Part shown: positions 1 to 25,374 of the stretch, piece after piece
Position numbering within the stretch: position 1 is the stretch's first letter
Layout of the letters: the number at the start of each line of letters is the position of its first letter
NCBI GenBank assembly: GCA_965223845.1
Contig: CBDCXR010000004.1
Coordinates: 3,136,001 to 3,200,000, forward strand
Source of the DNA: Planctomycetota bacterium
GTDB lineage: Bacteria > Planctomycetota > UBA8108 > SXIK01
DNA length: 64,000 nucleotides
Direction of reading: 5' to 3'
The notes under the pieces: model-generated
What the model was told of the DNA's origin: nothing
What the model saw: only the letters and a program-made list of their open reading frames with translations
Databases searched by the model: none
Translations under genes and position numbers: made by a program

Positions 1-3000
1 AGGTCGATTCCGCCGGTGACCCCGAGCGACAGCACGGGCTCGAAGGTGTACTCGAACTGAAAGTGGGGTTGGTTGCGACTCAGCTGCACGCGGATGTCAT
101 TGAAGAGTGCGGCGCCGAGATTCACGCCGAGCTTCCCCCAGAGCTCGAGGTCGACTCCGAGCACCTTGCCGCTGACGAGAGGACCCTGAAAGAGCGTCCA
201 GTCGAAGTCCTTCTCGAGAATCTTGAAGTTGTTGAGCTCGTAGACGATGTCGAAGTCCGGGCAGAGGAAGAATACCTGTCCCGGAATCTCCGCGTTCGGA
301 TTGATCGACCACTGCTTGTTGACGATGTCGTAGTTGATCAGCTTGAGCGCGAGCACGGCTTTGGCTTCGTCCGCGAACCACTTCTCGTCCTCGAGCCGCA
401 TCCGCGTCGTGGCACGTGCCTCAGCGTGGTTCTCGATGACGAGGTCGGTGACGAGAAGCGGGATCGTGAAGTCGTGCTCCCAGAGAAGCTGTCCCGGGAA
501 GCTGCCTTCAACCGTGTAGCGATGGGACGTCTTGTTGTACGAGATCTCCGTCGTGATCAAAGGAAGGTCGAGGAACGCCGGCTTGGGACAGAAGGAAATC
601 GGCCAGGTTTCCTCCGCTTCCTTGTCGTCCGAGTCTTCCACCCGGATGCGAACGCGCGCCTCGCTGACGTTCGGTACGTCACTCATGTTGAGAGTCGCCT
701 TCCACCACGAGAGTTTCGGGTGGCCGTCGAACATCGTCGCCGATTCGGAGAGGTACACGACGTTGTCGTTCGCGGCGTGAATCACCTCGAATCGCACTTC
801 GGTGATCTCTCCGAAGTTCGACGGCGCGACTTGGGTGTAGAACGTCACGTTGACGTCCGTCGCGATGTTCGGAATGTACTTTTTCTCCGCCGGGATCGGA
901 TCGATTCCGAAGATTCGCGGGGGAACGAGCGCGACGAAGCTGTCGGCGTCGCTCGGCGGAATGCCCGTCCCGAAGGCGCGGAACTCCGTCGAGCTGCCGC
1001 AGGCGTTGTCTTTCACGGTGACGCGCGCCTGAACGAGCTTACCGCGGGGAAACGTGCGGGTGACCTTGTTGCCCGCGGAAACGGCCGGACCGTTGCCGAA
1101 GTCCCAGATGTACTGCGTGATGTGGCCGTCCGAGTCCTCCGCGTCGCAGGCGAACGTCATCGTGATCTCATCATCGTTCGCGCCACCGGCTGCGCCGTCG
1201 CCGCCGATGCCCCCACCACCGCCGTTCGGGAACCCGTTCGCGAGCCAGCCACCGACTCCAGGACCCGTCGTCACTCTTCGAATCTGGTGGATGAGCGGCG
1301 GGATGTTGTCCGAAAGGGGATACACCTGAATGAGCGGATAGGGAGTACAGGGGAACGGGGGCGGCAGCTCCTGGGCGGCGGCGTCCTTCGTGAGGCCGTA
1401 GATCTCGAAGTTGTCACCGCCTCCGTCCACGTAGAAGCCGACCACGTAGTCGCCCTTGACGAGCGGGACGGGAAAGATCGCTTCGGTCCACCGGTTGTGC
1501 GTCGAGACGGGCAGATTGTTGACGTCGATGTTGTCGACGATGATGTCGTACGGCGGCAGGATCGAGCGCAGGCGCGCCTTGAGATCTCCTCCGTACCGGT
1601 AGCGGCTTCCGTGGACGCGGATGCGAACACCGTTTGTCGCGTCTTCGTCGAGCGTGAAGTAGGTCCGGCGCTCGATCGAATCGTCGCCCGTGAGAGGAAG
1701 CAGCTCGTCGGTCGCGATGCCGGTGCCGCCCGTCGGAACGGGCAAGGGACAATCGGTGAATCCGCCGATCGCGCAGCTCACCGAAGGGGCGCGCGCCCCG
1801 AGCGCGTCGACGGCCGGGCCATCGAGCTCGATGGTGAACTCGTGATTCTCGTCTCCACCTCGCGTCAGCTCGTCCCATTCCGACTGGGGAATGATCAGCT
1901 CGCGAGCATCGCCCTCGAGCTCGGCCATCGGCTCGCCGTCGCAGAAGATGCGGACGATGTCCGCGAGGATGACGTGCGACCAGGAGAGCCGAGCGCCGCG
2001 TCCACCCCCGAGGTATTCGCAGTTCACATCCTGAACCGGCGGCAGCTCCGGTGTCACGTAGGTAACGGCCGCTTCCAAAGTCGCCGTCGCATCGCGCGTA
2101 TCCGTGCCGATCGACAGGTCGTACGTGCCCGGATCGCGCGGAGGAAGCGTCACCGTCGCGTGCAGGACTCCGTCCAGTCGGACGCGGTGCGCGCCGGCGA
2201 AGCCGAACACTTCGTACGTACGACTCCGCTCGAGCGGATCCTCGAACACGACGGTCACGCGACCGCCGTCCGTGGGTAGTTCACTCGGGTAAACGTCGAC
2301 GATCTCGATCTCGAGATCGCGGTAGATGATCGCCCCCGGAACTTCGATGAGACTGATCTTGTCGAAATTGAGGCTGAGGGTCGACGTCGGAATCGTACCG
2401 CCGCCCTTGAGCTCCGGCCCGGCGGGAGGGACGCGTCCAACGATCCGGGTCGAATCGATGAACTGCTGGTCCAGGATCGGGCTGTCGCCGAACTTCGCAA
2501 CGAGCTCCGGGGTGAAGTTCTCACCGTCGATGGCGACGAAACTGCCGCCCGACCGCCAGTGCTCGCGCGGATGGACTCGACCGACCTTGACCGCGGGCAG
2601 GTCAGCCACGTACTCGATGGCATCCGGAAGGAACGCCACGCGCGTCAGATCTGCGTAGATGGTGACACCGGCAAGACCGGGCTCGTCTCTGCCCGGCGCG
2701 GTCCCCTCCATGAGGCGCGAGCTCACGACGACGAGATCTTGAATCGGCTGATCGTCCACATGGACGGCCTGACCGTTTTCGAAGCCTTCGCCGACGATTT
2801 GGATGCGGACTCCCCCCGCGAGAGGAACTTGTTCCGGAACGACGTCGACGATCCTGACCCGGGAGCCGGCTCCCACGTACGTCACTCCGTCTTGGAGCGT
2901 GGCGACGAGCCGCTCACCCTCGTAGAGCTCGACGTCGTAATCGCCGGGCTCGTGCGCCGGAACGACGCCCTCGAGCCGCTGACCGGACACGAAGCTCAGC

Positions 3001-3479
3001 TGCGCTACCGGCTCACCACCGATGTGAACCGAGTGATCGGCGATGAATCCATTGCCGAGGATCGCGATCGCCGATCCGCCGGACGCCGAATGTTCGTCGG
3101 GGTCGACGGCCTTGATGACCGCGCTCGACTGCGAGCTGACGTACGTCACCGCATCGCGGATGCGAGCGATGCGCTCGCCGCCGCGGCCGTAGAGCGTGAG
3201 ATCGTAGGTGCCGGGGTCCGCCGCCGGCGCGATGCCGCGGATCGTCGACGCATCGACGACCTTTGCGCTCGTCAGCGGCTGAGCTCCGATCGTTACGTAG
3301 TGGCCGGCGTCGAAGCCCGATCCCGACACCGTCACTTCGGCCCCGCCGGCCGCGTCGAGCTCACTCGGGTCGACCGAGCGAAGGCTCTGCGCCATCGCCG
3401 GACCGGCGTGAGCGAGAACGGCGAGCGTGAGAAGCACGACTCGCCCGCTTGGAAGGAAAGCACGTTCTGGGGTCCCCAT
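1..3479 (-). CDS. Large secreted protein, 3' end outside window: signal peptide, 5 IPT/TIG repeats, Cys-bracketed FN3-like module, PKD domain
   Basis: Absent from the ORF track because the stop lies outside the window. Manual translation from ATG 3479 (AGGAG RBS 8 nt upstream) gives MGTPERAFLPSGRVVLLTLAVLAHAGPAMA, repeats such as SVDPSELDAAGGAEVTVSGSGF, AVDPDEHSASGGSAIAILGNGF and DVVPEQVPLAGGVRIQIVGEGF, and the PKD motif DSDGHITQYIWDFGNG. The + strand ORFs 63..2279 and 2559..3533 are its in-register antisense shadows. Confidence 0.85.
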   Translation of the reverse strand, partial: MGTPERAFLPSGRVVLLTLAVLAHAGPAMAQSLRSVDPSELDAAGGAEVTVSGSGFDAGHYVTIGAQPLTSAKVVDASTIRGIAPAADPGTYDLTLYGRGGERIARIRDAVTYVSSQSSAVIKAVDPDEHSASGGSAIAILGNGFIADHSVHIGGEPVAQLSFVSGQRLEGVVPAHEPGDYDVELYEGERLVATLQDGVTYVGAGSRVRIVDVVPEQVPLAGGVRIQIVGEGFENGQAVHVDDQPIQDLVVVSSRLMEGTAPGRDEPGLAGVTIYADLTRVAFLPDAIEYVADLPAVKVGRVHPREHWRSGGSFVAIDGENFTPELVAKFGDSPILDQQFIDSTRIVGRVPPAGPELKGGGTIPTSTLSLNFDKISLIEVPGAIIYRDLEIEIVDVYPSELPTDGGRVTVVFEDPLERSRTYEVFGFAGAHRVRLDGVLHATVTLPPRDPGTYDLSIGTDTRDATATLEAAVTYVTPELPPVQDVNCEYLGGGRGARLSWSHVILADIVRIFCDGEPMAELEGDARELIIPQSEWDELTRGGDENHEFTIELDGPAVDALGARAPSVSCAIGGFTDCPLPVPTGGTGIATDELLPLTGDDSIERRTYFTLDEDATNGVRIRVHGSRYRYGGDLKARLRSILPPYDIIVDNIDVNNLPVSTHNRWTEAIFPVPLVKGDYVVGFYVDGGGDNFEIYGLTKDAAAQELPPPFPCTPYPLIQVYPLSDNIPPLIHQIRRVTTGPGVGGWLANGFPNGGGGGIGGDGAAGGANDDEITMTFACDAEDSDGHITQYIWDFGNGPAVSAGNKVTRTFPRGKLVQARVTVKDNACGSSTEFRAFGTGIPPSDADSFVALVPPRIFGIDPIPAEKKYIPNIATDVNVTFYTQVAPSNFGEITEVRFEVIHAANDNVVYLSESATMFDGHPKLSWWKATLNMSDVPNVSEARVRIRVEDSDDKEAEETWPISFCPKPAFLDLPLITTEISYNKTSHRYTVEGSFPGQLLWEHDFTIPLLVTDLVIENHAEARATTRMRLEDEKWFADEAKAVLALKLINYDIVNKQWSINPNAEIPGQVFFLCPDFDIVYELNNFKILEKDFDWTLFQGPLVSGKVLGVDLELWGKLGVNLGAALFNDIRVQLSRNQPHFQFEYTFEPVLSLGVTGGID

Positions 3480-3959: not shown

Positions 3960-6900
3960 TCAGAACCCGCATACGGTCGGGCAGTCCTCGATGCGCACGC
4001 AACCCTCCCCCAGTGCCGGCTGCGCGCCATTCGCGAAGAGGTAGTTGAGAAGGGCGACCGCGTCGGCGACGTTCACTCCTTCGTCCCCGTTCACGTCGAG
4101 GAGAAGAGCGCTTCCTCCCGATGCGAGCGGCGCGCCGTCGCAAGGAATCGGTCGCTCCGTCCCGCCGAACAAGTGGAGGAGGAGGGCGAGAGCGTCCGCG
4201 ACATCGAGACGACCGTCCTGATTTCCGTCACCCGGCCGCTGCCAGCCGCTGACTCCGCCGCTGTCTTCCGCCGCTCCCGGCGATCCGCCGATGTCGCCGC
4301 TCGCCGTCCAGCTCGCCGCGTCGGCCCAGCTCGCGGCCGGAGCGGTTTCATCGACGATGACGAGCGAGAACCCCTCTCCGTCCGTCGCCGGTTGCCAAGA
4401 ATCCGCGTATTCGAGCTCGAGGAGGGTCTCGCCGATCGGTCCGACGAGACGGATCGGGTCGGTCCGGTTGCTGAGCTTGCCGTCGTACTCGCCCGCGATC
4501 TGCATCCCGGCGGTGTCGTAGCGCTCCTCGAACGCCGAGAGGTTCCGCACGATGAGCGCGAACTCCCCGGGGCCGAGAAGCGGAACCGCGCTGCCGGCAA
4601 ACGAGAAGCGAACGCCGCCCTCGATGCGGATTCGCGAGAGGTCGAGCGTGTCCGGTCCGACGTTCCGCACCTCGACGAACTCGAAATCGTCGTCCCCGTG
4701 AAGGCTCTCCGGCGGCGGGGCCGGCGGGTGGTACATGAGCTCGGTGATCCGCAGCGGAAACTCGCTCTCGACCACGAAGACCGCTTCGTTGAGCGCACTC
4801 CATTCTCCATCGTCGAGCGTTCGCGCCCGCACTCGCGACGTGTTCGTGAGCGAGATCGGTCCCGTGTAGGTGTCGGCGTCGGGGTCCATCGGATCGCCCC
4901 CGTTCACGGTGTAGACGATGTCCCCCGACGGAACTCCAGTCTCCTCCGTGAGACCGATCAGCTCGGTGATGATCAGCATGTCACTCGACGTCGGACTCGT
5001 GTTGAGTCCGTGGATCGCGAGGAGGTTCTCCCCGACGCGAAGGTGCTCGATCGCGCTGCGCACGTTGTGGTCGACGGGAGACGTCGGGCTCGCCTCGCCA
5101 CCCGTTGTCGAGGCGGAGTTCCAGGCGATCGCGGCTTCGGACGGGGCGTTCGACGACGCGATGCGCTCGCCGTTGAGATAGGCCGCGAAGCCGTCGTCCG
5201 CAACCATGCGGAGAACCAAGTCGTCGAGATTCGCGATCGTCGCTGCGTCGGCGATCGAAAACGGAATCCGAACGTAGACGGACGTGTTGCCGCCACTCAT
5301 CTCGCTCTCGAAATCGATCTCGAGCCAGTTCTCGTAGCCGGAGCCCGTCTCGTAGCCGACTCCGTTTCCGCCGCTCGTCCACGTCTCGCCGCTCGAGCCT
5401 TCGGAGTAGGTTCTCTCACGCCACGCCGTGCCGAGAGAGTCGTCGGCGGGCACGACCGCGCGAATCGCGTCATCTCGCCCGACGAACGTCGTCTCCTCGA
5501 AGCCGAGCACGAGCTCGACCGTCATGGTGAGCGAGTCGCCTTCGTCGACAAAACCGCCGTAGCTTTCATCCCCCTCGAGGTGGAACACCGGGGCGGCGAT
5601 CTCCGGGTAGAGTCCGACGCGACGGAAGCGCTCGAGCGCGATGGGATGGATCCCGTCCCAGTACGTCTCCTGCACGAATTCCTGCTCGGCCAGCCATTCG
5701 ATTTCGCGTTTGTAGGGGACGGATTTCTTCGAATCACCCCACCGCGCGGACTCACCAACGATGGCTCGGTCGATCTCCGTGGCGCGATTCGCCCAGCGCT
5801 CGCGACTCGCTTCGGCGGTCAGCAGCCCATCGCCGAAGAGGTGGCGGTGCACGCGATCACCGAAGTCGCGACGGAAGTTCTCGTTCGCCATGAGGCGGCC
5901 GTAGAGAAACGACGGGGAAGCCGCCGAAATCGGATCTTCGAAGCGCGTTTGAAAGAGCGTGTGCGTCCGGATGAGCGAATCGTTCGAGATCTCTTGGTCC
6001 CAGACGAAAAACTGGTACCCCAGGCTCTCCGGCCCCCGGCGCCGAGCCGCCCACCAGTTGTGATTCGGCCAGTCTTCCGCGCCGGCGTAGATGTGGAGCA
6101 CCATGTAGTCGATGAGGCTGTCGACGTGGAGATAGTTGGGAAAGTCGGGATTCGGAACGCCGTCCGGGTCGTTCCCCTGAATTCTCTGGTAGGCGGAATC
6201 CGGACCGAGCCCTGCGTTCGCGAGCGCGATCATCTCGTCCCACGCCGTTCGCCGCCCCGACTGAAGCTCCGCGAAGTCCTTGATCACGTCGTACTCGTCC
6301 TTGTCACCGCCCAGGTGCTCGGCATTGAACGAGTCGGTCGGGCGCTCGGACGGATTGTAGAGACCCCAGTAGAGTCCGTTGAGAAACAGGTGAACGTAGG
6401 TTCCATGACCAGAGGGACGCCCCATCGCGATCTGCGCATCGCGCATCCACTGATCGCGCATGTAGGTCGCGTGTCGCGCCGCCCAGCGCTGTACACCGAG
6501 AACGGAACCGCCGTCGACCACCGGCCACGAGTCCGTCGACGCACCGCGGAGTAGGATCTGATCGAATCGATCGACGCGCGAGCCATCGAAAAGCGGATAA
6601 CGCAGCTTCGACGGCCCGTAGCGGCTCTTGAAGAGAACGCGGATCGGATGCTTCGGCGTGAAGCCGTGATTGCGACTCGAGTTCCCGTGCATGCGGATTC
6701 CGGCGTTCACTTGAAATCCGTCGCGACCATCGGGCCCATCCTGCCCGGGCGGATAGAAGAGCTCGATCGATGCGAGCCGCTCCCACGCCGGGCCGCGGTT
6801 ACGGGAGTTCGCGTAGATCCCCGTTGAGCCTTCAAAGAGATTCGCGGGATCTGTCGTGACGCTCATCGTCGGAATCGCGAGCAGGGCCTCTTCGAAGCTG

Positions 6901-9545: not shown

Positions 9546-9552
9546 GGATCAG

Positions 9553-13777: not shown

Positions 13778-16700
13778 CGGGCGTGACATCCGCTCCAGGA
13801 TGGGGGAACGGCGCGGCGGGCGGGTCGCCGGTTCCAAAGAGGTAATTGAGCGAACGAATCGGATCGGAGATGTCGATCCCGCCGTCGTCGTCCGTGTCTG
13901 CGGCATCCTCGCAAACGATGCTTCCGTCGGCAAAGAGATAGAACAGCGTCGCGATTGGATCGCCGATGTTGAGTCCGCCGTCTCGATTCGCGTCGCCGCG
14001 GATGAAGAGCACTCGCTCGTACGTGAATCCCCCGAACGCGACGACGCTCGCTTCTTCGACTGCGAGGCGAAGATCGACGCGCCCGTTCTCGGGGAGATCA
14101 TCCGGAGCCGGTGGGCTCACCGCGACCGCGAGCTCGGGCGAGCGGACATCGATCGAGGTCGCCTCCACTCCCCCAAAACGAATCGACAGATTCTCGCCGA
14201 ACCCGGTCCCGACGAACGTGACTTCCGTACCGCCCTCGGCGGGGCCGGAGTCGGGGCTCCAAGTCTCGAGCGTCGGCGGATCGGGGACACGTGACGAGCG
14301 GACGGTGAGCGACAGCTCGCCGACGAACTCGCCGTAGCCGTCGAAGCCGAAGAAGCGGAGCTCGTGGAGCTCCCGGGTTGTCGGAAACTCGAAAGACCAG
14401 CGCGTGACCGACGACCAAACGGGCGAAATGAGCTCCGTGTCGCCACCGTCGACCTCGACGTAGATCTGCTCGACGCGAAGCGGCGCCTCACCCTCGATCT
14501 CGACGTCGCGCTCCTCGGTTACGAGCGTTTCCCCGTCGCCCGATCGGATGCGAAAGGACGCCGTCGCGGAAGAGCGAACGAGCGACTCGACGCGCGACTT
14601 GACGGTGTTGATGTAGCCCTTGAAGCTCGAGGCGTTCACGCCGGTCGATCGCGTCACGGCGTCCATCCAAGGTCCGGCCGCGTCGACCGACCAGTAGCCG
14701 TCCGTGTATTGCTCGAGCGCCCGAAAGTACACGCGGCGCGGTTCGGGTCGGCTGAGGAGGCGCGCTGCGTGCACGTCGCCGGTGGGGAAAAAGCCCGCGT
14801 TCGGGTTCCCCATCGAGTTGTCCATGTCGAAGGGAAGGAGCTCCCACTTGCCGTCGGTCGGATCGTAAACGCAGTAGCCGTTGTGACCGTTTCCTACGAA
14901 GACCGCGTCCCAGTCGGAGGTCAGGATGCGGACGGCGAGCATGCGGAGATAGGCGTCGAGGTCGAGGACATCGCCCACGCGCGCGTCAAACTCGGCGTCG
15001 CGAGTCACGCGCCGGTCCATCACGCGCGTGAGCTCGATCCACTCGTCCCAACGATCCCGCGACTTGTGGATCGTGTGAGTCCAGTACCCGCGGTAGTTCT
15101 CCGCCTCCTCGTCCATATGCCAAAACGACGCCCCATCCCAATGCGATCTCGCGCACACGTCATTGAACGCGAGTCGCCCCACCGCTTTGATCACGATGGC
15201 TTCGTCGACTGCCTCGTCGCCGTACCATTTCTCGATGTAGTCGCCGTCGACCGGCTGGATCATCGCGTGGGTGCCGAGCGAGTTGCCGTTGAAGTGCGTG
15301 CGGATGTAGTGGTAGTCGGCGGTCGGCGCCGGCGCGTGCGGCCCGTTCGCTCTTCCGGCGAGAAAGTAGGCGACCCCTTCGCGCGCGTTCGCGCCGCGAC
15401 TCGAGAGGTTGATCGCCTTTCGGCCGCGATGGAAGCGATCGTCGTCGGGAAAACGAACGCGGAAATTCGTACGTCCGGGACGCCCCCACGGACTACCGCG
15501 ATAGCGGAGACCAATGTTGTACGTCGCCTCTTCGTCGTCGAAGACGAACGCCCCGTCGACGAGGTCGTTCGAATGGAGCGGACGCGTTCGGAGCTCGGTG
15601 TCGCTCGTGGCGTCGAGAATCACTCGGTAGACGTCGAGGCGGTCGGTCTCGGGCCCGGCCGCTTGGAAGAGACAAACTCGCTCGGGCGCATCGACGGGAA
15701 AGCGGCGCAAGGCACCGCTGGAGTCGACCGCTTCAACGTAGTAAACGACGCGGCGATTGCGATCGAATCCGGGAAGAGAGCCGCCGAAGACGCCATCGCC
15801 CGCGGCACCATCGCCGCGGACCCCGTCGTCGCGCAGATCGATGGACTCGGAGAACGTCCCCGCGCGATCATTCTCCCGGTAGTAGACCTTGACCGACTCG
15901 ATGCCGTCGGCGTCCGAGACGCGCGCGGTCACGATCGTCGGGACACCGGCCGCGGGCGAGACCGGAGCATGCGAGACATCCGAAATCACCGGGCCGAGAT
16001 TCGCCGCCCCGCTTTCCTCGCGCAGCCGGCGCGTCACGCTGTTTTCGCTTCCCGGCGTGCCGAGATTCCACGGGACGGTGAGGCGCAGCCGCGCCGCGAG
16101 GGTGTTTCCGGACAAGTTTTCGGCGGGCGCGGGGCGTCCGGGCCACGGCCCCGGCGTGAACTCGCCGTGCGCGATGAGGAGGCTGCTCCCGCGGATCCAG
16201 CGCGCCCAAAGCGAAACGTCGTAAGCGCCGCGCGCGAGTCTCGGCCGCGTGTCCGTCTCGATGCGATTGCAGAGAGAATCCCCCTTCGCCGAGGCGTCGA
16301 TTCGGAGACACGCGTTTCCGGAGTGGCTGTCGTCCGTGACGCGCCGGCTCCGCACGTGCGTCCCCTGGATCACCCACGGAGTAGTCGAGCTCTCGAATCC
16401 GGGATTCGGAATGCGGTTCTCCCCGCCGCCGTCCGGAGTGATCGAGACATCATCGATGTGACAGGTTCCGCGCTCCGAGAGGAAAAGATGGAGTTCCGTA
16501 TCCGCGGTCGGGGCGTAATTCGAGACGAAGAACTCGAGTTTCTCCCAATCGGCTTTCTCGCTCTCGTCGCTCGCGTCCCAGGCCGACGCGACATCGTTGT
16601 CCTGCCTCGGGTCGATGAGCTCGAGCGAGGCGCCCCGGCCGTCCGCCCACTCGGACCAGCGCCCGCCGTCGAAGTAGCGCACCTCATCGACGAGGTTCCC

Positions 16701-18500
16701 GCTCCGATCGACGAGACGAACGTTCTCGCCGCCGTCGGCGAGTGAGCCTTCGTAGGGACCGTAGGCTCCTTGGTACCCGTAGCGGTCGGCGAGAATCTGC
16801 GGATCTTCGGCGACGACGATATAGCCGCCCGCGGGCAGGGTCGTCCCGTCGGCGAAGGTGAGTTCGATCCCCTTCGAAAAGCGAAAGCCGCTGAGGTCGA
16901 TCGCCACCGAGCCGCGATTGTAGAGCTCGAGAAACTCCCCGTTGCGGTCGTCGGGCGGGTGGTAATAGATCTCGTTGATCACGACATCCGTCGTCCGCTC
17001 GACGACGTTCGGCGCCCCGGGTGTCGGTGTGAGGGTCACCCAGCGCGGACGATCGTCCGGATCGAGACGCGCTTCGGAATACTCTCCGATCGCGCCGCCG
17101 AAGGGAGGTGCGCGCTCGAAGATGGTCGCGGCGACGACGACTCCGCTCGGGTTGAAAAGAAAGAGCTTCACCTCGGCAGCCGAGAGGGCGAGCCCCGACG
17201 TCGCCTCCTCGACGACGAAAAACTCCCCCGGGGCGAGCGTCACCGCGGGAAGCACGAACGGATCGGCGCCGGACGACGGCTCCTCGATCCGGAACTCCCC
17301 GAGCGAGACGGCAGCTCGTCCGGTGTTCTCGATCTCGACCCAGCCGTCGCCGTTCGAGCCGCGAAAAAGCTCGCTGAAGAGGATGGAACCCAGGGGCGCA
17401 CTCGGTCCCCCGATCGGCCGCCGCTCGACGACGCGCGGGATCAGGCTGAAGTCGCCGCTCCCGATACTGAAGTTGAACGCGACGATCGCGAGGACGTTTG
17501 TGCCGTCGCGGACGAGTTCGCTGGACAGCGGAAAAAACTCTTCTTCGCCCGCTTCGCGCGAACCCGAAGCCGTCTCGTTCCATGCGACGGCATCCGGGCA
17601 GTTTCTGCGCGCGACCTCGACGCCGTTCAGATACGCGCAAAACCCGTCGTCGTAGTCGACGCCGAGAAAGAGGTCACCGGCTCCGGCTTCCGGAGGAAGG
17701 ACGAAGTCCACCCGGCACGCGATCGACGTGTAGTTCTCCCGCATGTCGTCCAAAACCGTCGCGTCGTCGTCATCGCCGTAGCCGATACCCGTCACCGCCG
17801 GTTCCCAAGCGGCATCGTCGAACTCGGGCTCCGTCCACTCAGTGGGAGGATCCGAGAACGCCGAGTCCCCGCGGCGCAGCCGCCACTCGGCGCCGACGGG
17901 GACGATGTCGACATCCTCGAACTGGATCTCGTCGGGCGGAAGAAAATTGACCGTGCCCGGCGTCCCACCGAGCTCGTCGCTCTGCACCCAGCTCTCCGGC
18001 TCGCTCGTATCGAGATGGACGTTTCGAAGCGCGAGCGTGTGACCCGAGCCGTCGGGACCGGTCGGCCACTTGTCGCGGTCCTTGAAGCGGAGACTTTGAA
18101 CGACGACGCCCGCGTGATTGACGAGCGTCAGCCGATCTCCGCCGGAATCCAGCCGTCCCTCGAAGTTGCCGACCGCGTTTTCGATGTCGTAGCGTTCGAC
18201 GAGCGCATCGACATCAGCACAGACGACGATGTGTGCGCGCGCGTCGAGAATGGTCCCCGGCGGAAAGACGAAACGGATCCCCTCGACGAAGGCGTAGCCG
18301 GAGAGGTCTTGGGGCGTCGACGTGTCGTTCGCGAGCTCGACAAACTCGAGGGAGTCGTTCCCCGGAGCCGGATTGTAGTGGATCTCGGAGACCACGACCG
18401 CGCGGACGGAGGTCGGCGAGACGGCCGAAGCGACGACCAGACCGAACAGAACTCGACCACGAAGCCAACGAGTGAACGACCGACTCCTACCACGTCCCAA
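13761..18500 (-). CDS. Secreted multi-LTD / jelly-roll / CBM4_9-like / CotH-family kinase / IPT / dockerin-like protein (1579 aa)
   Basis: Signal peptide ending SVRA; LTDs VVVSEIHYNP and VVINEIYYHP; YDDGFCAYLNG jelly-roll; CotH-like GLRYRGSPW...SDWD...HNGY...LPFDMDN; IPT WSPDSGPAEGGTEVTFVGTGF; FIRGDANRDGGLNIGD. The TTG start is uncertain. Confidence 0.88.
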   Translation of the reverse strand: MGRGRSRSFTRWLRGRVLFGLVVASAVSPTSVRAVVVSEIHYNPAPGNDSLEFVELANDTSTPQDLSGYAFVEGIRFVFPPGTILDARAHIVVCADVDALVERYDIENAVGNFEGRLDSGGDRLTLVNHAGVVVQSLRFKDRDKWPTGPDGSGHTLALRNVHLDTSEPESWVQSDELGGTPGTVNFLPPDEIQFEDVDIVPVGAEWRLRRGDSAFSDPPTEWTEPEFDDAAWEPAVTGIGYGDDDDATVLDDMRENYTSIACRVDFVLPPEAGAGDLFLGVDYDDGFCAYLNGVEVARRNCPDAVAWNETASGSREAGEEEFFPLSSELVRDGTNVLAIVAFNFSIGSGDFSLIPRVVERRPIGGPSAPLGSILFSELFRGSNGDGWVEIENTGRAAVSLGEFRIEEPSSGADPFVLPAVTLAPGEFFVVEEATSGLALSAAEVKLFLFNPSGVVVAATIFERAPPFGGAIGEYSEARLDPDDRPRWVTLTPTPGAPNVVERTTDVVINEIYYHPPDDRNGEFLELYNRGSVAIDLSGFRFSKGIELTFADGTTLPAGGYIVVAEDPQILADRYGYQGAYGPYEGSLADGGENVRLVDRSGNLVDEVRYFDGGRWSEWADGRGASLELIDPRQDNDVASAWDASDESEKADWEKLEFFVSNYAPTADTELHLFLSERGTCHIDDVSITPDGGGENRIPNPGFESSTTPWVIQGTHVRSRRVTDDSHSGNACLRIDASAKGDSLCNRIETDTRPRLARGAYDVSLWARWIRGSSLLIAHGEFTPGPWPGRPAPAENLSGNTLAARLRLTVPWNLGTPGSENSVTRRLREESGAANLGPVISDVSHAPVSPAAGVPTIVTARVSDADGIESVKVYYRENDRAGTFSESIDLRDDGVRGDGAAGDGVFGGSLPGFDRNRRVVYYVEAVDSSGALRRFPVDAPERVCLFQAAGPETDRLDVYRVILDATSDTELRTRPLHSNDLVDGAFVFDDEEATYNIGLRYRGSPWGRPGRTNFRVRFPDDDRFHRGRKAINLSSRGANAREGVAYFLAGRANGPHAPAPTADYHYIRTHFNGNSLGTHAMIQPVDGDYIEKWYGDEAVDEAIVIKAVGRLAFNDVCARSHWDGASFWHMDEEAENYRGYWTHTIHKSRDRWDEWIELTRVMDRRVTRDAEFDARVGDVLDLDAYLRMLAVRILTSDWDAVFVGNGHNGYCVYDPTDGKWELLPFDMDNSMGNPNAGFFPTGDVHAARLLSRPEPRRVYFRALEQYTDGYWSVDAAGPWMDAVTRSTGVNASSFKGYINTVKSRVESLVRSSATASFRIRSGDGETLVTEERDVEIEGEAPLRVEQIYVEVDGGDTELISPVWSSVTRWSFEFPTTRELHELRFFGFDGYGEFVGELSLTVRSSRVPDPPTLETWSPDSGPAEGGTEVTFVGTGFGENLSIRFGGVEATSIDVRSPELAVAVSPPAPDDLPENGRVDLRLAVEEASVVAFGGFTYERVLFIRGDANRDGGLNIGDPIATLFYLFADGSIVCEDAADTDDDGGIDISDPIRSLNYLFGTGDPPAAPFPHPGADVTPDDLDC

Positions 18501-18757
18501 TGTTTCGGCTCCCTCCGAGATTTCGACGGCCCCGTCCGGTTACCTGCGCGGCGGCGGCCCGCCCCTCACTATCCCTCACGGTCGCGCGCGGAGCGAGTTT
18601 TAAAGTGTATCGAGCGACCCCGGAGAGATAGACTCGGGGCGTTAGGGTCGATCTCGACTTCACGAGGATCGTCGAAGCGCCTCCGCCGTTGCGGGACGTC
18701 TTCGAGGTGTAGGCGCCGACTTTGCGTCGGCGTTTGGAGGGATACAAAGGAGGTGTG

Positions 18758-21439
18758 ATGCGCGCGCTCTACCTGGGTTCTGCCGTTCTGCTTGTCTCGC
18801 TCGCTTTGACGCCGGTCGTCCGAGCCCTCGACGCTCCGGTTTACATCAACTTCGGTGGTCCAGAGGTGGTCGACTCGTTCGGCCGCACGTGGCTCGGTGA
18901 TCAGGGTGCGGGGGCCGACGTGCTCGATATCCGGCCCGACGACGCGGGCGGATTCAATACGATAGAAGGCTGGTGCAATCCGTCGGCTGCGTCCGTCTCC
19001 GCACTCGTCGCGGATTCGTCTCTCGGTGTCAACTTCAACGGTTCGCACCCGGGAGACGTGAACCTCTTCCGCAGCATCCGCTGGGACCTCGGCGGGGAAG
19101 CTCCCGACTACGTGGTCGAGATTCCGATCGCGCCCGGTTCCTATCGCGTCGCCGCGTACTTCTGCGAGAGCTGCTGCCCCAATCGCCACTCGAAGGTCCT
19201 CATTCAGGGTGAAGTCGCGTTTCCGGATGTGAGTGTGGCCTCCTACGCCGGCGGCGCGACCCACACGCCCGGTGTGCACGAGCAGGCGGACGTCATGGTC
19301 GGCGAGGACGGAATCCTCAACCTCACGCTCCTCGGCTGTCTCGATCCGGAGTGTCCCGGAGGTGGCGACGGCAATCCGACGCTCACCGCGCTCGCCGTTG
19401 TCCCGTCGGATTTCGACCCTTGCTCCGATCCGGGCTTCCGCGCTTGCCCCGGTGGACTCGGTTCGTCCGTCGACGGCGACGGCAACGTCTCGCTTTCCTG
19501 GAACGCCCCGGTCTGCATCGCGCCGACGGGCTACGAAGTCAGCCGCGACGGAGAGGTCATCGCGAACATCGCAGGCGATTCGCTGTCCTTCGACGACTCG
19601 ACCGCTAGTCGCCTCACCAACTACTCGATCCAGGCGCAGTTCGACGACGACACCGTCTGCCCGCCGATGGAGATCACCGTCCTCCGCGAGGAAGTGGCGT
19701 TCGACGTCCCCGTTCGCATCAACATGGGTGGTGTACGGACCACCGACAGCCTCGGCCGAGAGTGGCTCGGTGACGGACCCGGCGGCGGCGATCCCCTCGC
19801 GATCCGCCCGAACGACCTCGGCGGAGCGAACACGATCGAGTTCTGGTGTGCGCTCAACACGGCGCTCGAGCCGGACGCCCTGCAGGCTCTCGGCCTCGAC
19901 CCCTACAACTCGAGCGATGTCTACGTCTTCAACACGATCCGCTGGGACAACGGAGGCGATGCCGAGGACTACGCGCTCGAGCTTCCGATTGCCGATGGCG
20001 ACTACATCGTGAACCTCTACTTTAACGAGTGCGGGGGCGGTACGAACCGCCACTTCAAAATTGAAATGGAGGGTGCGAGTGTCGACAACGATGTCAATTC
20101 CGGGAGGTATTCCGCGGTCGCGGCGTCCGGTCGAACGGGGATTCTGTCCTATGACGCGACCGTCGCCGACGGCGCGCTCAGCATCTCGCTCCTCCCCTGT
20201 GGCGAGTGCCTCGGCGCGACCGACACGAATCCGATTCTGAACGCAGTCGAGGTCGTCCCGGCCGGAACGGTGACCCCCGTTTGCGCGCGCCAGCTGAGAG
20301 CGACAGCAAACGAGGCAGGAGACATGGTCGACCTCGCGTGGATGGCGCCGATCGACGCCGGCCAGACCGGTTACGACGTCCTCCGAAACGGCGCGAGCAT
20401 CGGCATGGCCGCCGCCGACGCGACCACGTTCACCGACGACTCGCCGCCGTGTAACCGCACGGTTCTCTACGAGCTCGTTCCGCTCTTCGAGGGGGACTCA
20501 CCGTGTCCGGGCATCGAGCTCCGGGCGGTGGTTACGCTTCCCGATTGTCCCTTCGCAGCGCCGATTCGCGTCAACATGGGTGGACGTACGGCGAGCGATT
20601 CGAGCGGCAATCTCTGGGTCGGAGATCCGGGCGCCGGAGCGGACGTGCTCGGGATGCGACCGAATGACGATGGCGGAACGAATGCGATCGAGAACTGGTC
20701 GGCCGGGATCCTCGACGCCGACTCGTTCACGAAGCTCGGGCTCGATCCGACGCACCCCGGCGACGTTCACGTCTTCACATCGATCCGCTGGGATCCGGCG
20801 AACGACGCGGCGAACTTCATCATGGATCTCCCGCTCGCCGAGCCGGGCACCTACACAGTGAACATGTACTTCAACGAGGCGTGCTGCGTCGGCCGGAACT
20901 TCAAGATTCAGGTCCACGGTGCGATCCTCGACGACAACGTGAGCTACCTCGACTACGACGCCGAGCCGGCGCTCGGGAAGTCGGGTGTCCTCAGCTTCGA
21001 AGGAGTCCTCGCGCTCGACAATATCCTCATCGGACTTCTGCCGTGTCCCGAGTGCCCGCGCCCAGCGGGAGTCGGAGCGGACAACAACGCGATCATCGAT
21101 GCCCTTGAGATCATTCGCACCGGCGACGTCCCCGATGGGACCACCATCCAGATAGCCGGCGATTGCAACCAAGACGGCGGACTCGACATCTCCGATCTCA
21201 TGTGCTCGATTCGCACGCTGTTCCCGGGATTCCTGCTCCTAGGCTCGAGTCCGAGTCCCTGCGGAACGCCCGAGGGTGACGCGGCGCTCCTCGATTTCGA
21301 CGGGAGTGGCGGCTTCAGCACCGTCGACGTCGTCGGGTTCGCGCAGTACCTCTTCGGCGGCGGGCAAGGACCGGCGCTCGGCACCGGTTGCGGGCCCATC
21401 ACCGTTCCGGGCTGTAACGCGAGCGCGAGCTGCCCGTAA
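18758..21439 (+). CDS. Secreted protein with 3 malectin-like domains, 2 Cys-bracketed FN3-like spacers and a C-terminal dockerin-like module (893 aa)
   Basis: AAGGAGGT RBS directly before ATG 18758; signal peptide; repeats INFGG/INMGG...DSxGRxWLGD...IRWD...YxVxxYFxE...RxFKI; C-terminal AGDCNQDGGLDISD...LLDFDGSGG. Confidence 0.88.
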   Translation: MRALYLGSAVLLVSLALTPVVRALDAPVYINFGGPEVVDSFGRTWLGDQGAGADVLDIRPDDAGGFNTIEGWCNPSAASVSALVADSSLGVNFNGSHPGDVNLFRSIRWDLGGEAPDYVVEIPIAPGSYRVAAYFCESCCPNRHSKVLIQGEVAFPDVSVASYAGGATHTPGVHEQADVMVGEDGILNLTLLGCLDPECPGGGDGNPTLTALAVVPSDFDPCSDPGFRACPGGLGSSVDGDGNVSLSWNAPVCIAPTGYEVSRDGEVIANIAGDSLSFDDSTASRLTNYSIQAQFDDDTVCPPMEITVLREEVAFDVPVRINMGGVRTTDSLGREWLGDGPGGGDPLAIRPNDLGGANTIEFWCALNTALEPDALQALGLDPYNSSDVYVFNTIRWDNGGDAEDYALELPIADGDYIVNLYFNECGGGTNRHFKIEMEGASVDNDVNSGRYSAVAASGRTGILSYDATVADGALSISLLPCGECLGATDTNPILNAVEVVPAGTVTPVCARQLRATANEAGDMVDLAWMAPIDAGQTGYDVLRNGASIGMAAADATTFTDDSPPCNRTVLYELVPLFEGDSPCPGIELRAVVTLPDCPFAAPIRVNMGGRTASDSSGNLWVGDPGAGADVLGMRPNDDGGTNAIENWSAGILDADSFTKLGLDPTHPGDVHVFTSIRWDPANDAANFIMDLPLAEPGTYTVNMYFNEACCVGRNFKIQVHGAILDDNVSYLDYDAEPALGKSGVLSFEGVLALDNILIGLLPCPECPRPAGVGADNNAIIDALEIIRTGDVPDGTTIQIAGDCNQDGGLDISDLMCSIRTLFPGFLLLGSSPSPCGTPEGDAALLDFDGSGGFSTVDVVGFAQYLFGGGQGPALGTGCGPITVPGCNASASCP

Positions 21440-21523: not shown

Positions 21524-21552
21524 GGTTATCCATCTCAGGAGGGGGTCCCATC

Positions 21553-24500
21553 ATGCGTCCCATTCATCGCGTGGTCTGTTCAGCAGGGTTCGCGCTTCTC
21601 CTCGCCGCGCCGGCTGCGGCACAAGAACTGTTCAATGTGCCGGTGCGCATCAACATGGGAGGTCCGGAACTCACCGACTCGTACGAGCGGGTGTGGTTGT
21701 CCGATCGAGATGACTGCGGGGGCGCACAGAACGTCGATCCGCTGAACATTCGCCCCGACGACCAAGGCGGCGAGAACGCGATCTGCGATTGGGCGATGGG
21801 GAACTTCCAGCCGGATTCCCTCGACAATCTCGGATTCGATTCCTTCGATCCGAACGACGTGTCGATCTTCAACACGATCCGCTGGGACAACGGCGGAAAC
21901 GCGATCGACTTCTTCATGGAGATCCCGATTCCGGCCGGGTTCTACCACGTGAACATGTACTTCACCGAAGGGTGCTGCACGGGGCGGCACTTCAAGATCG
22001 AGCTCCAAGGGGAGATCGTCGACGACGACGTGAGCTACCTCGACTACGACGAGGAAGCTCCGGCTCTCGGGCGAACCGGCGTCCTCGGGTTCAGCGACAT
22101 CGAGGTCGGCGACGACCAGATCCTCCGCATCGGGCTCCTGCCGTGCCCGGAATGTCCGCGCGAGGCCGGAGAGGGTATCGACAACAACGCGATCATCGAC
22201 GCGCTCGAGATCATCTCGGACGCAAACTGTGATCACCTGGGAATGGATTTCAACAGCGAGTTCGACACCGAAACGGGCCGCGTGTTCGGCTCCTGGAACG
22301 GTGTTGCCGGGGCGGAAGCGTACCGAATCCTCCGCAACGGGGATCCTCTGGGCGATGACTTGGCCTCGAACGCGCGCAGCTTCGTGGACGCCAACCCCGG
22401 AGACGCTGGCACCGCCGGCGTCCGCTACACCGTCCAGGCTCTCGATGGCGGAGTGCCGATCAGCGAGTGCTCGAGCTTTGTGAAGACCTTCGCCTGTCCC
22501 TCCGACCTCGTCTGCGAAGTGACGGCGGGAGAGGCCGAGGTCGCGCTCTCCTGGAACCCGGGGGCTGGGCTCGACGTTTCGGGCTTCGAGATCCGCGCGA
22601 ACGGCGAGCTCATCGATACGCTCGGGCCGGACGCGAGCGTGTACGAGCACGAGCCGACGGAGAGAAACATCGCCTACACCGTAACTCCCATCACGGACCC
22701 GCCCGGCGGCTGTTCCGAGATGACCTGCACGGTCTGTGTCGACGGCGCTGCCTTCGAGACTCCGCTGCGCATCAATCTCGGCGGCCCCGAGCTCGTGGAT
22801 TCGCTCGGCCGCGTCTGGCTCTCGGACAATCTCGGTACCCAGGACGAGCTCTGCATTCGTCCCGACGACGGCGGCGGGTTCAACAACATCGTAAATTGGT
22901 GCCCGCAGACTCCCGAGTCCGTCGAGGCCCTCGGATTCGATCCGACCAATCCCAACGACACCTCGATCCTCGGTACGATTCGGTGGGACGTCGGCGGTGA
23001 CGGGGTCGACTGGATGCTCGAGCTTCCGCTCGCGGACGACGGGGAAGACTCGTACACCGTGACGATGTACTTCAACGAGTGCTGCTGTCCGGGACGACAC
23101 TTCCAGATCGCGATCGAGGAGGAGCTCGTCGAGGAGGACGTCGCGGCATCCGATTTTTTCCAGGCGGGTAGCCTCGCGAACGTCGGCGCACGCGTCTACG
23201 AAGACATCATCGTCGACGACGGCGCGCTCACGGTGCATTTCATTCCGTGCCCCGACCCGGACTGCCCGGGAGCGAACGACATCAACGCGATCTGCAGTGC
23301 GATCGAAGTCGTGCCGAGCACATTCGACCCGTGCAGCAATCCCGACTTTACGCAGTGTCCGCAGGGCCTCACCTGTGTCGTCGGTGCGAACGGCGCGGTC
23401 TCCGGCGAATGGGAAGGACCGCTTTGCTTCGACGTGCAGGGTTACGAAGTTCGGCGAGATGGAGACCTGATCGACACGCTCGCAGCGGATGCGACTTCGT
23501 TTACGGACACTCTCGAAGCACGCATTGGAAACTACACCGTCACGCCGCTCGTCGGCGAGGGCGATCGCGCCTGTAGCGCGATGAGCTGCAGCGTCGTCCG
23601 GCCCGAGATCCCGTTCGCCGTGCCGCTCTATATCAACATGGGCGGACCCGCTACGGTCGACAGCCGCGGTCGCCAGTGGCTCGGCGATGAGGGCAACACG
23701 GATCCGCTCGGCATCCGTCCGGATACCGCGGGCGGACCGAACTCGATCGTCAACTGGTGCCCACGGACGGCGGTCTCAGAAAACGACTCGTACGAGTCGC
23801 TCGGGTTCGATCCGAACGCCGAGAGCGATCGTTTGATCCTCAACTCGATCCGATGGGACGTCGGGGACGACGACCAAGACTTCCAGATTGGTAACGATCT
23901 CGACCCCGACGACATCGACTTCCGGCTCGAGATTCCGGTTCCGAACGGGGACTACCTCGTCAGTGCGTACTTCGCCGAGTGCGGCGGCCCCGGCGCCCGT
24001 CACTTCTCCGTTGAGGTCCAAGGCGATCTCGTCGCGGAGGATGTGAGCACGCTCGAATACTCGGACATCGCGCGACCCGGCCGGCTCGGTCGACTCGACT
24101 TCGACGACATCTCCGTGACGGACGGGATTCTTCGCGTCGGATTCCTCCCCTGCCCGGACTGCGTCGACGCGATCGATTTCAATCCGATTGTGAACGCCCT
24201 CGCGATTCAGGCGGCCGGTTCGGCGGAGCCCATTTGCGCGCGCGATCTCATTTGCGAAGTCGACGGCGGCTCGGTCACGGGCTCGTGGGTTCCGGGTATC
24301 GGTGTCGAGGTGACCGGATACGAAGTGCTTCGAAACGGTCAGCTCATCGATACGCTCGGTGCGGACGCGACTTCGTTCGACGACGACGTGCCTTGTTCGC
24401 GTGTCACGACGTACGAAGTCCGTCCGATGACGGACGGCGATTCTCCCTGCCCGAACCTGGCGATGCGCTGCACGATCACGGATCTGACCTGTCCGTTCGA

Positions 24501-25374
24501 GGCTCCGGTCCGCCTCAATATGGGCGGCGCGACGACCCCGGACTCGAAGGGGAACATCTGGGTCGGAGACGGCCCGGGCGCCGGCGATCCGCTCGACATC
24601 CGCCCCGAGGACGGCGGCGGAACGAACACGATCGAAAACTGGAGCGCCGGACTGCTCGCCGACGACACGTTCGAGAAGCTCGGCCTCGACCCGACGCATC
24701 CGGGCGACGTCTACATCTTCAACACGATCCGCTGGGACAACGCGGCGGACGGACCGGATTTCGATTTCCGCATGGAGATCCCGATCGACGACGGCGACTA
24801 CGACGTCCACTTCTACTTCAACGAAGCGTGCTGTCGCGGGCGTCACTTCCAGATCGAGCTGGAAGGTGAGGTGCTCAACGACGACGTGAGCTACACCGAT
24901 TACGACGAGACGCCGGACCTCGGCCGAGCGGGACGCCTCAGCTTCCCCGAGATCGCGGTCACCGGCGACATCCTCGAGATCGGCCTCCTTCCCTGCCCGC
25001 TCTGCGAGCGCGAGGCGGGCGCCGGCGTCGACAACAACGCGATCATCGACGCGATCGAGATCGTTCGTTCCGGCGACATGCCGCGCGACGAGTTCAAGCG
25101 CGGCGACGCCAACACCGACGGCTCGGTCAACATCGCCGACATGATCTTCATGCTGAACCGCCTCTTCGGCGACGGCGGCCTTCCGACCTGCCTCGAGACC
25201 GCGGATCTGAACGGCGATGCGAACTTCAACATCGCCGACGCAATCTTCGGTCTCAACCGGCTCTTCGGTGACGGTCCGCCGCCGATCGACGGTCACGGAC
25301 CGGACGGGGACGAGTGCGGTGAAGACCCGAACCCGGGGAACTCGCTCGGGTGCGAGTTCTACGACAAGTGCTGA
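21553..25374 (+). CDS. Secreted protein with 4 malectin-like domains, ~4 Cys-bracketed FN3-like spacers and a C-terminal dockerin-like module (1273 aa); paralog of the 18758 gene
   Basis: AGGAGG RBS, ATG 21553, signal peptide ending APAAA; four INMGG/INLGG/LNMGG...W...IRWD repeats; EFKRGDANTDGSVNIAD...ADLNGDANFNIAD. Confidence 0.88.
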   Translation: MRPIHRVVCSAGFALLLAAPAAAQELFNVPVRINMGGPELTDSYERVWLSDRDDCGGAQNVDPLNIRPDDQGGENAICDWAMGNFQPDSLDNLGFDSFDPNDVSIFNTIRWDNGGNAIDFFMEIPIPAGFYHVNMYFTEGCCTGRHFKIELQGEIVDDDVSYLDYDEEAPALGRTGVLGFSDIEVGDDQILRIGLLPCPECPREAGEGIDNNAIIDALEIISDANCDHLGMDFNSEFDTETGRVFGSWNGVAGAEAYRILRNGDPLGDDLASNARSFVDANPGDAGTAGVRYTVQALDGGVPISECSSFVKTFACPSDLVCEVTAGEAEVALSWNPGAGLDVSGFEIRANGELIDTLGPDASVYEHEPTERNIAYTVTPITDPPGGCSEMTCTVCVDGAAFETPLRINLGGPELVDSLGRVWLSDNLGTQDELCIRPDDGGGFNNIVNWCPQTPESVEALGFDPTNPNDTSILGTIRWDVGGDGVDWMLELPLADDGEDSYTVTMYFNECCCPGRHFQIAIEEELVEEDVAASDFFQAGSLANVGARVYEDIIVDDGALTVHFIPCPDPDCPGANDINAICSAIEVVPSTFDPCSNPDFTQCPQGLTCVVGANGAVSGEWEGPLCFDVQGYEVRRDGDLIDTLAADATSFTDTLEARIGNYTVTPLVGEGDRACSAMSCSVVRPEIPFAVPLYINMGGPATVDSRGRQWLGDEGNTDPLGIRPDTAGGPNSIVNWCPRTAVSENDSYESLGFDPNAESDRLILNSIRWDVGDDDQDFQIGNDLDPDDIDFRLEIPVPNGDYLVSAYFAECGGPGARHFSVEVQGDLVAEDVSTLEYSDIARPGRLGRLDFDDISVTDGILRVGFLPCPDCVDAIDFNPIVNALAIQAAGSAEPICARDLICEVDGGSVTGSWVPGIGVEVTGYEVLRNGQLIDTLGADATSFDDDVPCSRVTTYEVRPMTDGDSPCPNLAMRCTITDLTCPFEAPVRLNMGGATTPDSKGNIWVGDGPGAGDPLDIRPEDGGGTNTIENWSAGLLADDTFEKLGLDPTHPGDVYIFNTIRWDNAADGPDFDFRMEIPIDDGDYDVHFYFNEACCRGRHFQIELEGEVLNDDVSYTDYDETPDLGRAGRLSFPEIAVTGDILEIGLLPCPLCEREAGAGVDNNAIIDAIEIVRSGDMPRDEFKRGDANTDGSVNIADMIFMLNRLFGDGGLPTCLETADLNGDANFNIADAIFGLNRLFGDGPPPIDGHGPDGDECGEDPNPGNSLGCEFYDKC

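Follow-up and report, generated by a model that had tools for sequence, protein, structure and literature searches.

Dockerin-tagged CotH-kinase and malectin-repeat genes at a Planctomycetota locus as a local part of a genome-wide class of putatively exported proteins

We analyzed a 64,000-nucleotide stretch (hereafter the window) from the genome of a Planctomycetota bacterium (GenBank assembly GCA_965223845.1, contig CBDCXR010000004.1, positions 3,136,001 to 3,200,000). Its first 25.4 kb, with a G+C content of about 65%, hold six long open reading frames (ORFs), here designated p1 to p6, of which p1 to p4 lie on the minus strand and p5 and p6 on the plus strand, with p4 and p5 diverging across a 257-bp spacer (Table 1). 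Three of the products combine lamin tail domains (LTD) with a CotH kinase domain, two are made of malectin repeats and one carries TIG and PKD domains. An earlier note on this DNA, drawn from the sequence of the window, had described six adjacent secreted multidomain proteins, a description confirmed by Pfam and, as regards export, by inspection, and had proposed that they form a cellulosome-like assembly. We find instead that the cluster is the place where a genome-wide secretome sharing a dockerin-like module (the tag) is most densely represented.

Pfam was run on whole p1 to p6 and on 300-residue pieces. In agreement with the earlier note, this revealed no glycoside-hydrolase catalytic family in any of the six, and neither Pfam nor our own cohesin profile detected a cohesin in them; the matches to CHB_HEX_C, Laminin_G_3 and the RGI_lyase beta-sheet domain concern accessory, non-catalytic beta-sandwich families. 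The p1 gene runs past the edge of the window, and its complete ORF was read from the genome (G000:C4:3133501-3139482, 1994 amino acids; G000 is this genome). The long p3 ORF overlaps p4 by 340 bp, and a typical hydrophobic leader follows an internal methionine, M105 or M109; because of the overlap, the true start of p3 likely lies there. All six N-termini show a basic stretch followed by a hydrophobic segment ending in AxA-like residues, and signal peptides were called from these features by eye only. The nearest homologues bear the names Planctomycetes or Planctomycetota, and this phylum is non-sporulating, which agrees with the probably non-sporulating host assumed previously. No sigma-70-like site was found in the p4/p5 intergenic region, promoter and terminator scans of window positions 1-20000 gave no excess over shuffled sequence, and Rfam and tRNA scans of the whole window found nothing.

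Table 1. Genes, domains and intergenic region of the tagged cluster (nucleotide positions refer to the window, other domain positions to residues; export and signal peptides were called by eye)
Feature	Position (nt)	Strand	Product	Domains and remarks
p1	3..3479	-	first 1159 aa of 1994-aa ORF	runs past window edge; exported; TIG/IPT x4 + PKD; dockerin-like tag at C-terminus, outside window
p2	3960..9545	-	1861 aa	signal peptide; LTD 46-152; Laminin_G_3 450-599; CHB_HEX_C 771-836; CotH ~1026-1287 (nt ~5688-6470); CHB_HEX_C ~1536-1580; weak LTD ~1598-1713; tag nt 4017..4235 (-)
p3	long ORF 9683..14101; likely 9683..~13789	-	~1368 aa counted from M105	signal peptide; LTD x2; CotH 689-987 (nt ~10829-11725); LTD ~1032-1130; PKD 1189-1272; tag nt 9761-9946
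p4	13761..18500	-	1579 aa	signal peptide; LTD 30-138, 367-457, 503-609; beta-sandwich domains; CotH 998-1269 (nt ~14694-15509); TIG 1409-1481; tag nt 13818-14000
p4/p5 intergenic region	18501..18757	divergent		Shine-Dalgarno-like AAGGAGG ahead of p5 ATG at 18758
p5	18758..21439 (alternative start 18722)	+	893 aa	signal peptide; malectin-like beta-sandwiches ~24-216, 315-501, 600-789; Fn3-like sandwiches between; tag nt 21158-21373
p6	21553..25374 (alternative start 21484)	+	1273 aa	p5 paralogue; extra N-terminal malectin-like unit; tag nt 25099-25284

The last ~100 residues of p2 to p6 follow the pattern F.RGD.N.DG.....D....L..LF, Cys, a second D.N.DG.....D....L..LF, a Pro-rich stretch and a terminal Cys. 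In all six proteins a 12-residue Ca-type loop (DxNxDGxxxxxD) is duplicated, each copy being followed by a hydrophobic L..LF segment. The shared C-terminal tag reported earlier for the complete proteins holds, and with the full p1 ORF it extends to p1, so that six of six carry it: a profile of our own, seeded with the tags of p2 to p6, scores p1 to p6 at E-values of 2e-11 to 2e-25, with 72 bits for the p2 tag. The suggested check with the Pfam hidden Markov model Dockerin_1 (PF00404, cut-off 22.9 bits) had a divided outcome. The cut-off is exceeded by p6 (24.9/27.0 bits) and reached by p2 as a piece (23.7 bits, against 19.1 for the whole protein and 22.9 in the genome scan), p3 remains below it (18.6 bits), and p4 and p5 give no match at E ≤ 0.01. 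In the predicted structure of p5 the tag region is modelled as helices (811-821, 838-845 and 855-867) with moderate predicted local distance difference test scores (pLDDT 62-85). We interpret the dockerin of p1 to p6 as a putative Planctomycetota-type variant with two EF-hand-like Ca loops and a Cys/Pro tail.

Genome-wide, at least 145 matches to Dockerin_1 were obtained at E ≤ 0.01 (150 of 421 first-look candidates being scored), and our tag profile, iterated over all stop-to-stop ORFs of at least 80 amino acids, converged on 315 ORFs and 334 domains, with no match in reversed ORFs. Once the tag is masked, the cargo of these 315 ORFs separates into 175 similarity clusters, of which 142 are singletons; the largest, with 65 members, includes all 50 tagged CotH proteins, and p5 and p6 form a cluster by themselves. 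Pfam analysis of a cargo sample of 38 tagged proteins (17 cluster representatives, 20 random singletons and p1) detected FG-GAP, beta-helix, LamG, PKD, F5/8 type C, LTD, NHL and FGE-sulfatase-like domains together with five peptidases (three S8, one C25, one M10). Ten of the 38 had no Pfam match at all, and none contained a glycoside-hydrolase catalytic family. Grouping tagged ORFs less than 600 bp apart yields 225 runs (175 single ORFs, 29 pairs, 11 triples, 4 fours, 4 fives and 2 sixes), among which p1 to p6 is the joint longest and the sole run with three consecutive CotH genes. Because the tag is not its hallmark, the cluster is no self-contained assembly, and that part of the earlier proposal is not borne out.

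Candidate partners of the tag are encoded elsewhere in the genome. The Pfam Cohesin model gave 16 weak matches in a genome scan, four of them above its cut-off, and 15 of these 16 ORFs are also tagged; when the 16 were searched with hmmscan, Cohesin appeared at E ≤ 0.01 in nine and passed the cut-off in two, one protein uniting matrixin peptidase, TIG, cohesin and dockerin. Our own cohesin profile, seeded with six modules and run for five rounds without convergence, picked up 27 ORFs at first, every one of them tagged, and 49 by the fifth round, of which 48 are tagged. This amounts to 36-79 cohesin-like modules, with a maximum of three per protein, compared with 334 tags, and no multi-cohesin scaffoldin was found genome-wide with this profile, no ORF having more than three modules. 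In several proteins tag and cohesin-like module alternate as [Doc-Coh]n-Doc. Three of these, L027, L029 and L030 (G000:C4:5666063-5668639, 4771455-4773458 and 5490329-5492431), are organized as Doc-Coh-Doc-Coh-Doc and could in principle polymerize head to tail. An array of ten tandem genes, each with one to three cohesin-like modules and a tag (G000:C4:1046648-1070661), is the candidate in this genome that most resembles a scaffold. The genome thus appears to hold the parts for a cohesin-dockerin-like network without a classical scaffoldin, to which p1 to p6 would contribute as cargo only. A complex prediction between a cohesin-like module (23-row alignment) and the p4 tag (56-row alignment) returned a score of 0.00, which weighs neither way. 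The p1 protein, with its IPT/TIG domains, had been put forward as a candidate receptor, and we reject it in that role: it is itself tagged, has no cohesin-like module by our own profile and finds no match in the corresponding loci of eight relatives.

The reading that we favor, and that we hold to be probable with appreciable room for doubt, is that the cluster is a local, partly syntenic part of a genome- and order-wide class of exported dockerin-tagged proteins that dock into a network. Alternatively, the tag could be a generic sorting or anchoring signal and not a cohesin-binding dockerin, for example a Cys tail for attachment to a Cys/Pro-rich proteinaceous envelope or the mark of an export route, and the cluster would then encode envelope proteins. 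The distribution of the tag over 175 unrelated clusters fits such a signal, and so does its position, since it ends within 60 amino acids of the stop in 283 of the 315 ORFs, with a median tail of 26; the conservation of a Cys and of a Pro-rich stretch behind the second loop and the shortage of detectable cohesin-like modules relative to tags point the same way. However, the tag is N-terminal (behind the leader) or internal in about 32 ORFs and occurs more than once in 13, which fits a module and not a terminal signal. The alternation of tags and cohesin-like modules inside single proteins, the near confinement of these modules to tagged proteins and the 145 tags that match Dockerin_1 likewise argue for docking, and we regard the generic signal as possible but rather improbable. 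The earlier note had considered that a tag on hundreds of unrelated proteins lacking any partner would speak against a shared complex; the spread is as wide as that, and cohesin-like modules do exist elsewhere in the genome.

The CotH domains (PF08757, cut-off 23.8 bits) score 68.4 bits in p2 (E-value 1e-18), 130 bits in p3 (1.9e-37) and 60.8 bits in p4 (2e-16). The genome contains 70 Pfam CotH matches among 71 first-look candidates, and our own CotH profile recovers 61 ORFs, of which four in five (50) carry the dockerin module. In pairwise comparisons p2, p3 and p4 share 27-37% identity over short parts, and closer paralogues of each lie elsewhere; on sequence grounds they are no recent duplicates and represent three different CotH subfamilies. 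Both p3 and p4 align to the Bacillus cereus CotH structure 5JD9, keeping the D....N and (W/F)DxD motifs (WDvD in p3), and in the family alignment p2 reads DWPNHN ... WDQE. When the 61 domains are aligned with MAFFT, the catalytic columns are DNWDE in p2, DNWDD in p3 and DNFDD in p4, and the Asp, Asn/Ser and Asp positions are kept in 52 of the 61 paralogues. Among 49 p4-family sequences from databases (39-62% identical to p4), the catalytic D1198 and N1207 and the metal-binding D1225 are invariant. In Bacillus subtilis, CotH loses its activity through the substitution D228Q or D251A (PMC7821199), and the D....N and (W/F)DxD motifs correspond to this catalytic Asp (D228) and metal-binding Asp (D251); the mapping of 5JD9 residues to B. 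subtilis was inferred from a constant numbering offset of 4. The predicted model of p4 residues 600-1300 (pLDDT 88.9, predicted template-modelling score 0.86) places beta-sandwich domains ahead of a kinase fold, and its top match in the PDB is 5JD9 (E-value 7e-17, template-modelling score (TM) 0.72 on the target, 383 columns). Taken together, the CotH domains of p2 to p4 look like working kinases.

Some further CotH genes deserve mention. The closest paralogues of p4 (G000:C4:3033551-3038089 and 2364107-2368702, 47-50% identity) have altered metal-binding columns, FDFN and FDMG in place of FDMD, and may be pseudokinase copies. A fourth CotH protein of 875 amino acids is encoded at window positions 59052-61676 (-), with N-terminal EF-hand/dockerin-like repeats, CHB_HEX_C and the catalytic columns DNWDE; it gives no match to our tag profile. 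Directly upstream of it, a Hanks-type Ser/Thr kinase with TPR repeats (61645-63999, -) is cut by the window end.

The CotH domains might also serve as structural or adhesive modules, like the CotH invasins of Mucorales, in which case the proteins would act as adhesins or as components of a matrix, through their Ig-like, LTD and lectin domains. The cellulosomal role of CotH is called unclear in a 2025 review (PMC12484212). Beta-sandwich modules (LTD, TIG, PKD, LamG, CHB_HEX_C) dominate the proteins, and a catalytic-column residue has been lost in 9 of the 61 paralogues. ATP, moreover, is scarce outside the cytoplasm, which favors a non-enzymatic role. The invariance of the catalytic and metal-binding residues of the p4 family at 39-62% identity, their retention in most paralogues and the match of the predicted p4 fold to the B. 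cereus kinase speak against the loss of activity, and we consider it quite unlikely that these domains are structural or adhesive modules and not working kinases.

The malectin-repeat proteins p5 and p6 match the Malectin family (PF11721, cut-off 23 bits) with 56.1 and 75 bits, respectively, over the whole protein, and with 20-28 bits for single modules. Residues 23-885 of p5 match residues 400-1262 of p6 at 45% identity, and both contain internal repeats. The predicted model of p5 (pLDDT 86.9) comprises three malectin-type sandwiches with Fn3-like sandwiches between them and the helical tag last, and the parts previously called FN3-like are, in this AlphaFold model, beta-sandwiches between malectin modules. 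In the PDB the model most closely matches the tandem malectin-like ectodomains of FERONIA and ANXUR, which are receptor kinases of plants (E-value ~5e-15), and human malectin (9ikp) superposes on one p5 module with a TM of 0.66 and a root-mean-square deviation of 4.9. A search of a collection of 5.8 billion proteins returned 53 family members at E ≤ 1e-10, either unnamed, "hypothetical" or named "malectin domain-containing carbohydrate-binding protein" of Planctomycetes/Planctomycetota, and a search of named genomes with p5 gave only two weak matches, at the tag or a short stretch, in metagenome-assembled genomes of Planctomycetota. A cysteine pattern, YF.E.CC..RHF ... LLPC..CP, is conserved in each malectin-like module of p5, p6 and 33 homologues. 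This pattern, which we take to lie outside the usual description of malectin, may provide disulfides or a metal site.

For the analysis of gene order, p4 and p5 were searched in the 20 other genomes of the order (G001-G020). One or more malectin genes have a p4-like gene of nearly full length (47-55% identity) as divergent neighbor on the same contig in 11 of these 20 relatives, namely G002 in family f1, G004, G008, G010, G011, G014, G015, G018 and G019 in family f2, and G005 and G009 in family f3; these 11 genomes are kin from three families, and the count reflects retention by descent and not independent events. In a best-hit check against all tagged or CotH ORFs of G000, the neighbors in G002, G005, G008 and G009 pointed to p4, and those of the malectin pair in G012 to p2 and p3. 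Both genes are also present in G006, G007 and G016, on short contigs that stop at the junction, and G013, G017 and G020, which are 55-80% complete, gave no strong p4 match. The synteny expected from the earlier note is found for the core of p4-type and malectin genes, the remainder of the cluster being less constant. First-look candidates in the 21 genomes of the order number 12-88 for CotH and 94-598 for dockerin per genome, figures that stand for candidates and not for validated copies. Among 121 genomes sampled from the phylum, 28 have CotH, with 70 first-look candidates in G000, 62 in G005, of the same order, and at most 10 in every other genome listed. The conserved divergent pair of a p4-type kinase and a malectin protein points to a specific functional partnership, which is the best-supported specific claim that we can make for this locus.

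If the tagged proteins do form a docked network, p1 to p6 would be exported through Sec and would then dock, in a Ca-dependent manner, through their tags onto the cohesin-like modules of roughly 27-49 further tagged proteins whose genes lie elsewhere. Such docking would give rise to a network of envelope-associated proteins of the type termed "planctosome" and not a scaffoldin-based cellulosome. On this network the CotH domains could phosphorylate envelope or matrix proteins or glycoconjugates, and the malectin lectin might be the targeting subunit or the substrate of the p4-type kinase.

Several observations weigh against such a network. Detectable cohesin-like modules fall far short of the tags, number three at most per protein and reach the Pfam cut-off in two to four cases; none resides in p1 to p6, and our unconverged cohesin profile may have drifted to generic beta-sandwiches. 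Docking is read from sequence, and the proposed network has no anchor to the cell. Export likewise depends on signals seen by eye, and the envelope-associated placement that we infer does not separate periplasm from surface. As enzymes, extracytoplasmic kinases would need a supply of ATP outside the cytoplasm, and p2 has no PDB match by phmmer. With respect to synteny, p1, p2 and p3 are not constant neighbors of the pair; in G012, p2- and p3-like kinases adjoin the malectin pair and the p4-like gene is on another contig, and G001 and G003 yielded no malectin match with the p5 query, G001 also having no close relative of p4 and G003 a partial one only. The common descent of the 11 genomes and the provisional nature of the first-look counts belong here as well.

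Beyond the tagged cluster, the window holds several further gene groups. Directly after p6 come a Na+/Pi cotransporter with a PhoU domain (25496-27277, -), a PAS histidine kinase (27437-29212, -), a glucuronyl-esterase-like gene (29350-30534, +) and a PhoD-like phosphatase (30628-31959, +). Phosphate-related genes beside the kinases are suggestive; none of the four was found by tblastn in the corresponding loci of eight relatives, and we treat their adjacency to the cluster as unconserved and reject the link. An EgtB-like (DinB_2 and FGE-sulfatase) and EgtD-like (Methyltransf_33) pair at 40556-42897 (-), which looks like ergothioneine synthesis, adjoins an OpuAC/permease fusion, and three consecutive sulfatase genes on alternating strands occupy 46068-51402. 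Series of sulfatase genes are typical of Planctomycetota.

That the cluster belongs to a true polysaccharide-degrading, cellulosome-like machine with unrecognized hydrolases, as its Malectin, LamG and CHB_HEX_C domains, a weak CBM_4_9 match, the sulfatases and glucuronyl-esterase-like gene of the window and several stretches of p2 to p4 without Pfam match might suggest, is very improbable, given that no glycoside-hydrolase catalytic family occurs in the six proteins or the 38 sampled ones, that the part of p4 without Pfam assignment models as beta-sandwiches and not as a hydrolase barrel, and that no multi-cohesin scaffoldin was found.

Within the preferred reading of a docked, tagged secretome, both the components and the concept of a docked assembly that is not cellulolytic are already known; the novelty lies in how large the CotH cargo is, in its preserved active sites and in the conserved pairing of kinase and malectin genes. 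For the question of what CotH kinases do in cellulosomes and among secreted proteins, a lineage with CotH as the largest cargo family of a cohesin-dockerin-like system offers many natural variants, along with a concrete candidate partner pair, since one kinase subtype reliably accompanies a lectin-like protein. Should the kinases be active outside the cytoplasm, they would constitute a large bacterial extracytoplasmic phosphorylation system; if they are not, the proteins are ordinary, though numerous, envelope proteins. The finding also broadens what is known of cohesin-dockerin assemblies without cellulolytic function in Planctomycetota. As a more speculative idea, to which we attach only a low probability, this order may have built a docked extracytoplasmic "kinome" with dozens of catalytically intact CotH kinases per genome, in which the p4 lineage is co-inherited with malectin-repeat lectins as a divergent gene pair. 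Assembled on the same cohesin-like network, lectin and kinase would then resemble a plant malectin-like receptor kinase split into two non-covalently joined parts, and the lectin would steer phosphorylation to particular glycans or glycoproteins of the envelope or of prey or host polymers.

Compared with known systems, p5 and p6 share with malectin and the ectodomains of plant CrRLK1L kinases (FERONIA, ANXUR; 6a5b, 6fig, 5y96; human 9ikp) the Pfam Malectin assignment and, in the p5 model, the beta-sandwich fold. They differ in sequence, with 9-18% identity in the structural alignments, and in having three to four modules with Fn3-like domains in between, the conserved CC..RHF and LLPC..CP cysteines, and no kinase on the same chain. 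Bacillus CotH (B. cereus 5JD9/5JDA) and the kinases described here have in common the Pfam family, the predicted fold, the catalytic Asp and Asn and the metal-binding Asp. The Bacillus protein is a 40-kDa single-domain enzyme of the mother cell that acts on the spore coat, whereas p2 to p4 are exported multidomain proteins of 1400-1900 amino acids from a non-sporulating phylum. In Bacillus, cotH lies divergently beside cotG, the gene of its partner or substrate.

The cellulosomal proteins of Clostridium (Acetivibrio) thermocellum include CseP/Cthe_0044 (CotH) and Cthe_0239 (LTD, LTD, Fn3, CotH) (PMC6083626), and CotH-like proteins occur in some cellulosomes according to the review cited above (PMC12484212). 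Kinases in place of hydrolases on a cellulosome-like assembly, as proposed in the earlier note, are therefore not without precedent, C. thermocellum already having dockerin-bearing CotH proteins. The likeness consists in LTD repeats, an Ig/Fn3-like spacer and CotH on a protein tabulated as cellulosomal, in a table whose domain column omits the dockerin (PMC6083626). The literature that we found pairing CotH with the lamin tail concerns the C. thermocellum cellulosome only, and our search of the literature library revealed no link between CotH and Planctomycetota; a paper naming CotH and Planctomycetes deals, where it mentions CotH, with a viral target of diversity-generating retroelements. In C. 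thermocellum, one or two CotH proteins sit on multi-cohesin scaffoldins amid dozens of glycoside hydrolases; in contrast, the present genome has 50 tagged CotH paralogues, no tagged glycoside hydrolase in the sample, at most three cohesin-like modules per protein and a Planctomycetota-type dockerin with a Cys/Pro tail, in another phylum. The host envelope is of the Gram-negative type. Of the features that define a cellulosome, neither a multi-cohesin scaffoldin nor, in the six proteins and the 38 sampled, dockerin-borne glycoside hydrolases as main cargo were found.

A further related system is the "planctosome" proposed for Nemodlikiaceae, in which cohesins and dockerins, together with LTD proteins and peptidases, would form a complex that is not cellulolytic (Andrei et al. 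2019, ISME J, PMC6461901). Both systems would comprise planctomycete cohesin and dockerin modules unlinked to cellulose, LTD proteins and dockerin-borne peptidases, here of families S8, C25 and M10. As far as the available description goes, the "planctosome" is a small peptide-degrading complex with an LTD "anchor", in which neither CotH nor malectin is mentioned (PMC6461901). Its cohesin and dockerin proteins, LTD proteins and peptidases, without cellulases, all appear to be present in this genome, a likeness to a hypothesis and not membership of an established family, and to these the genome described here adds hundreds of tagged proteins, with CotH as their largest cargo family.

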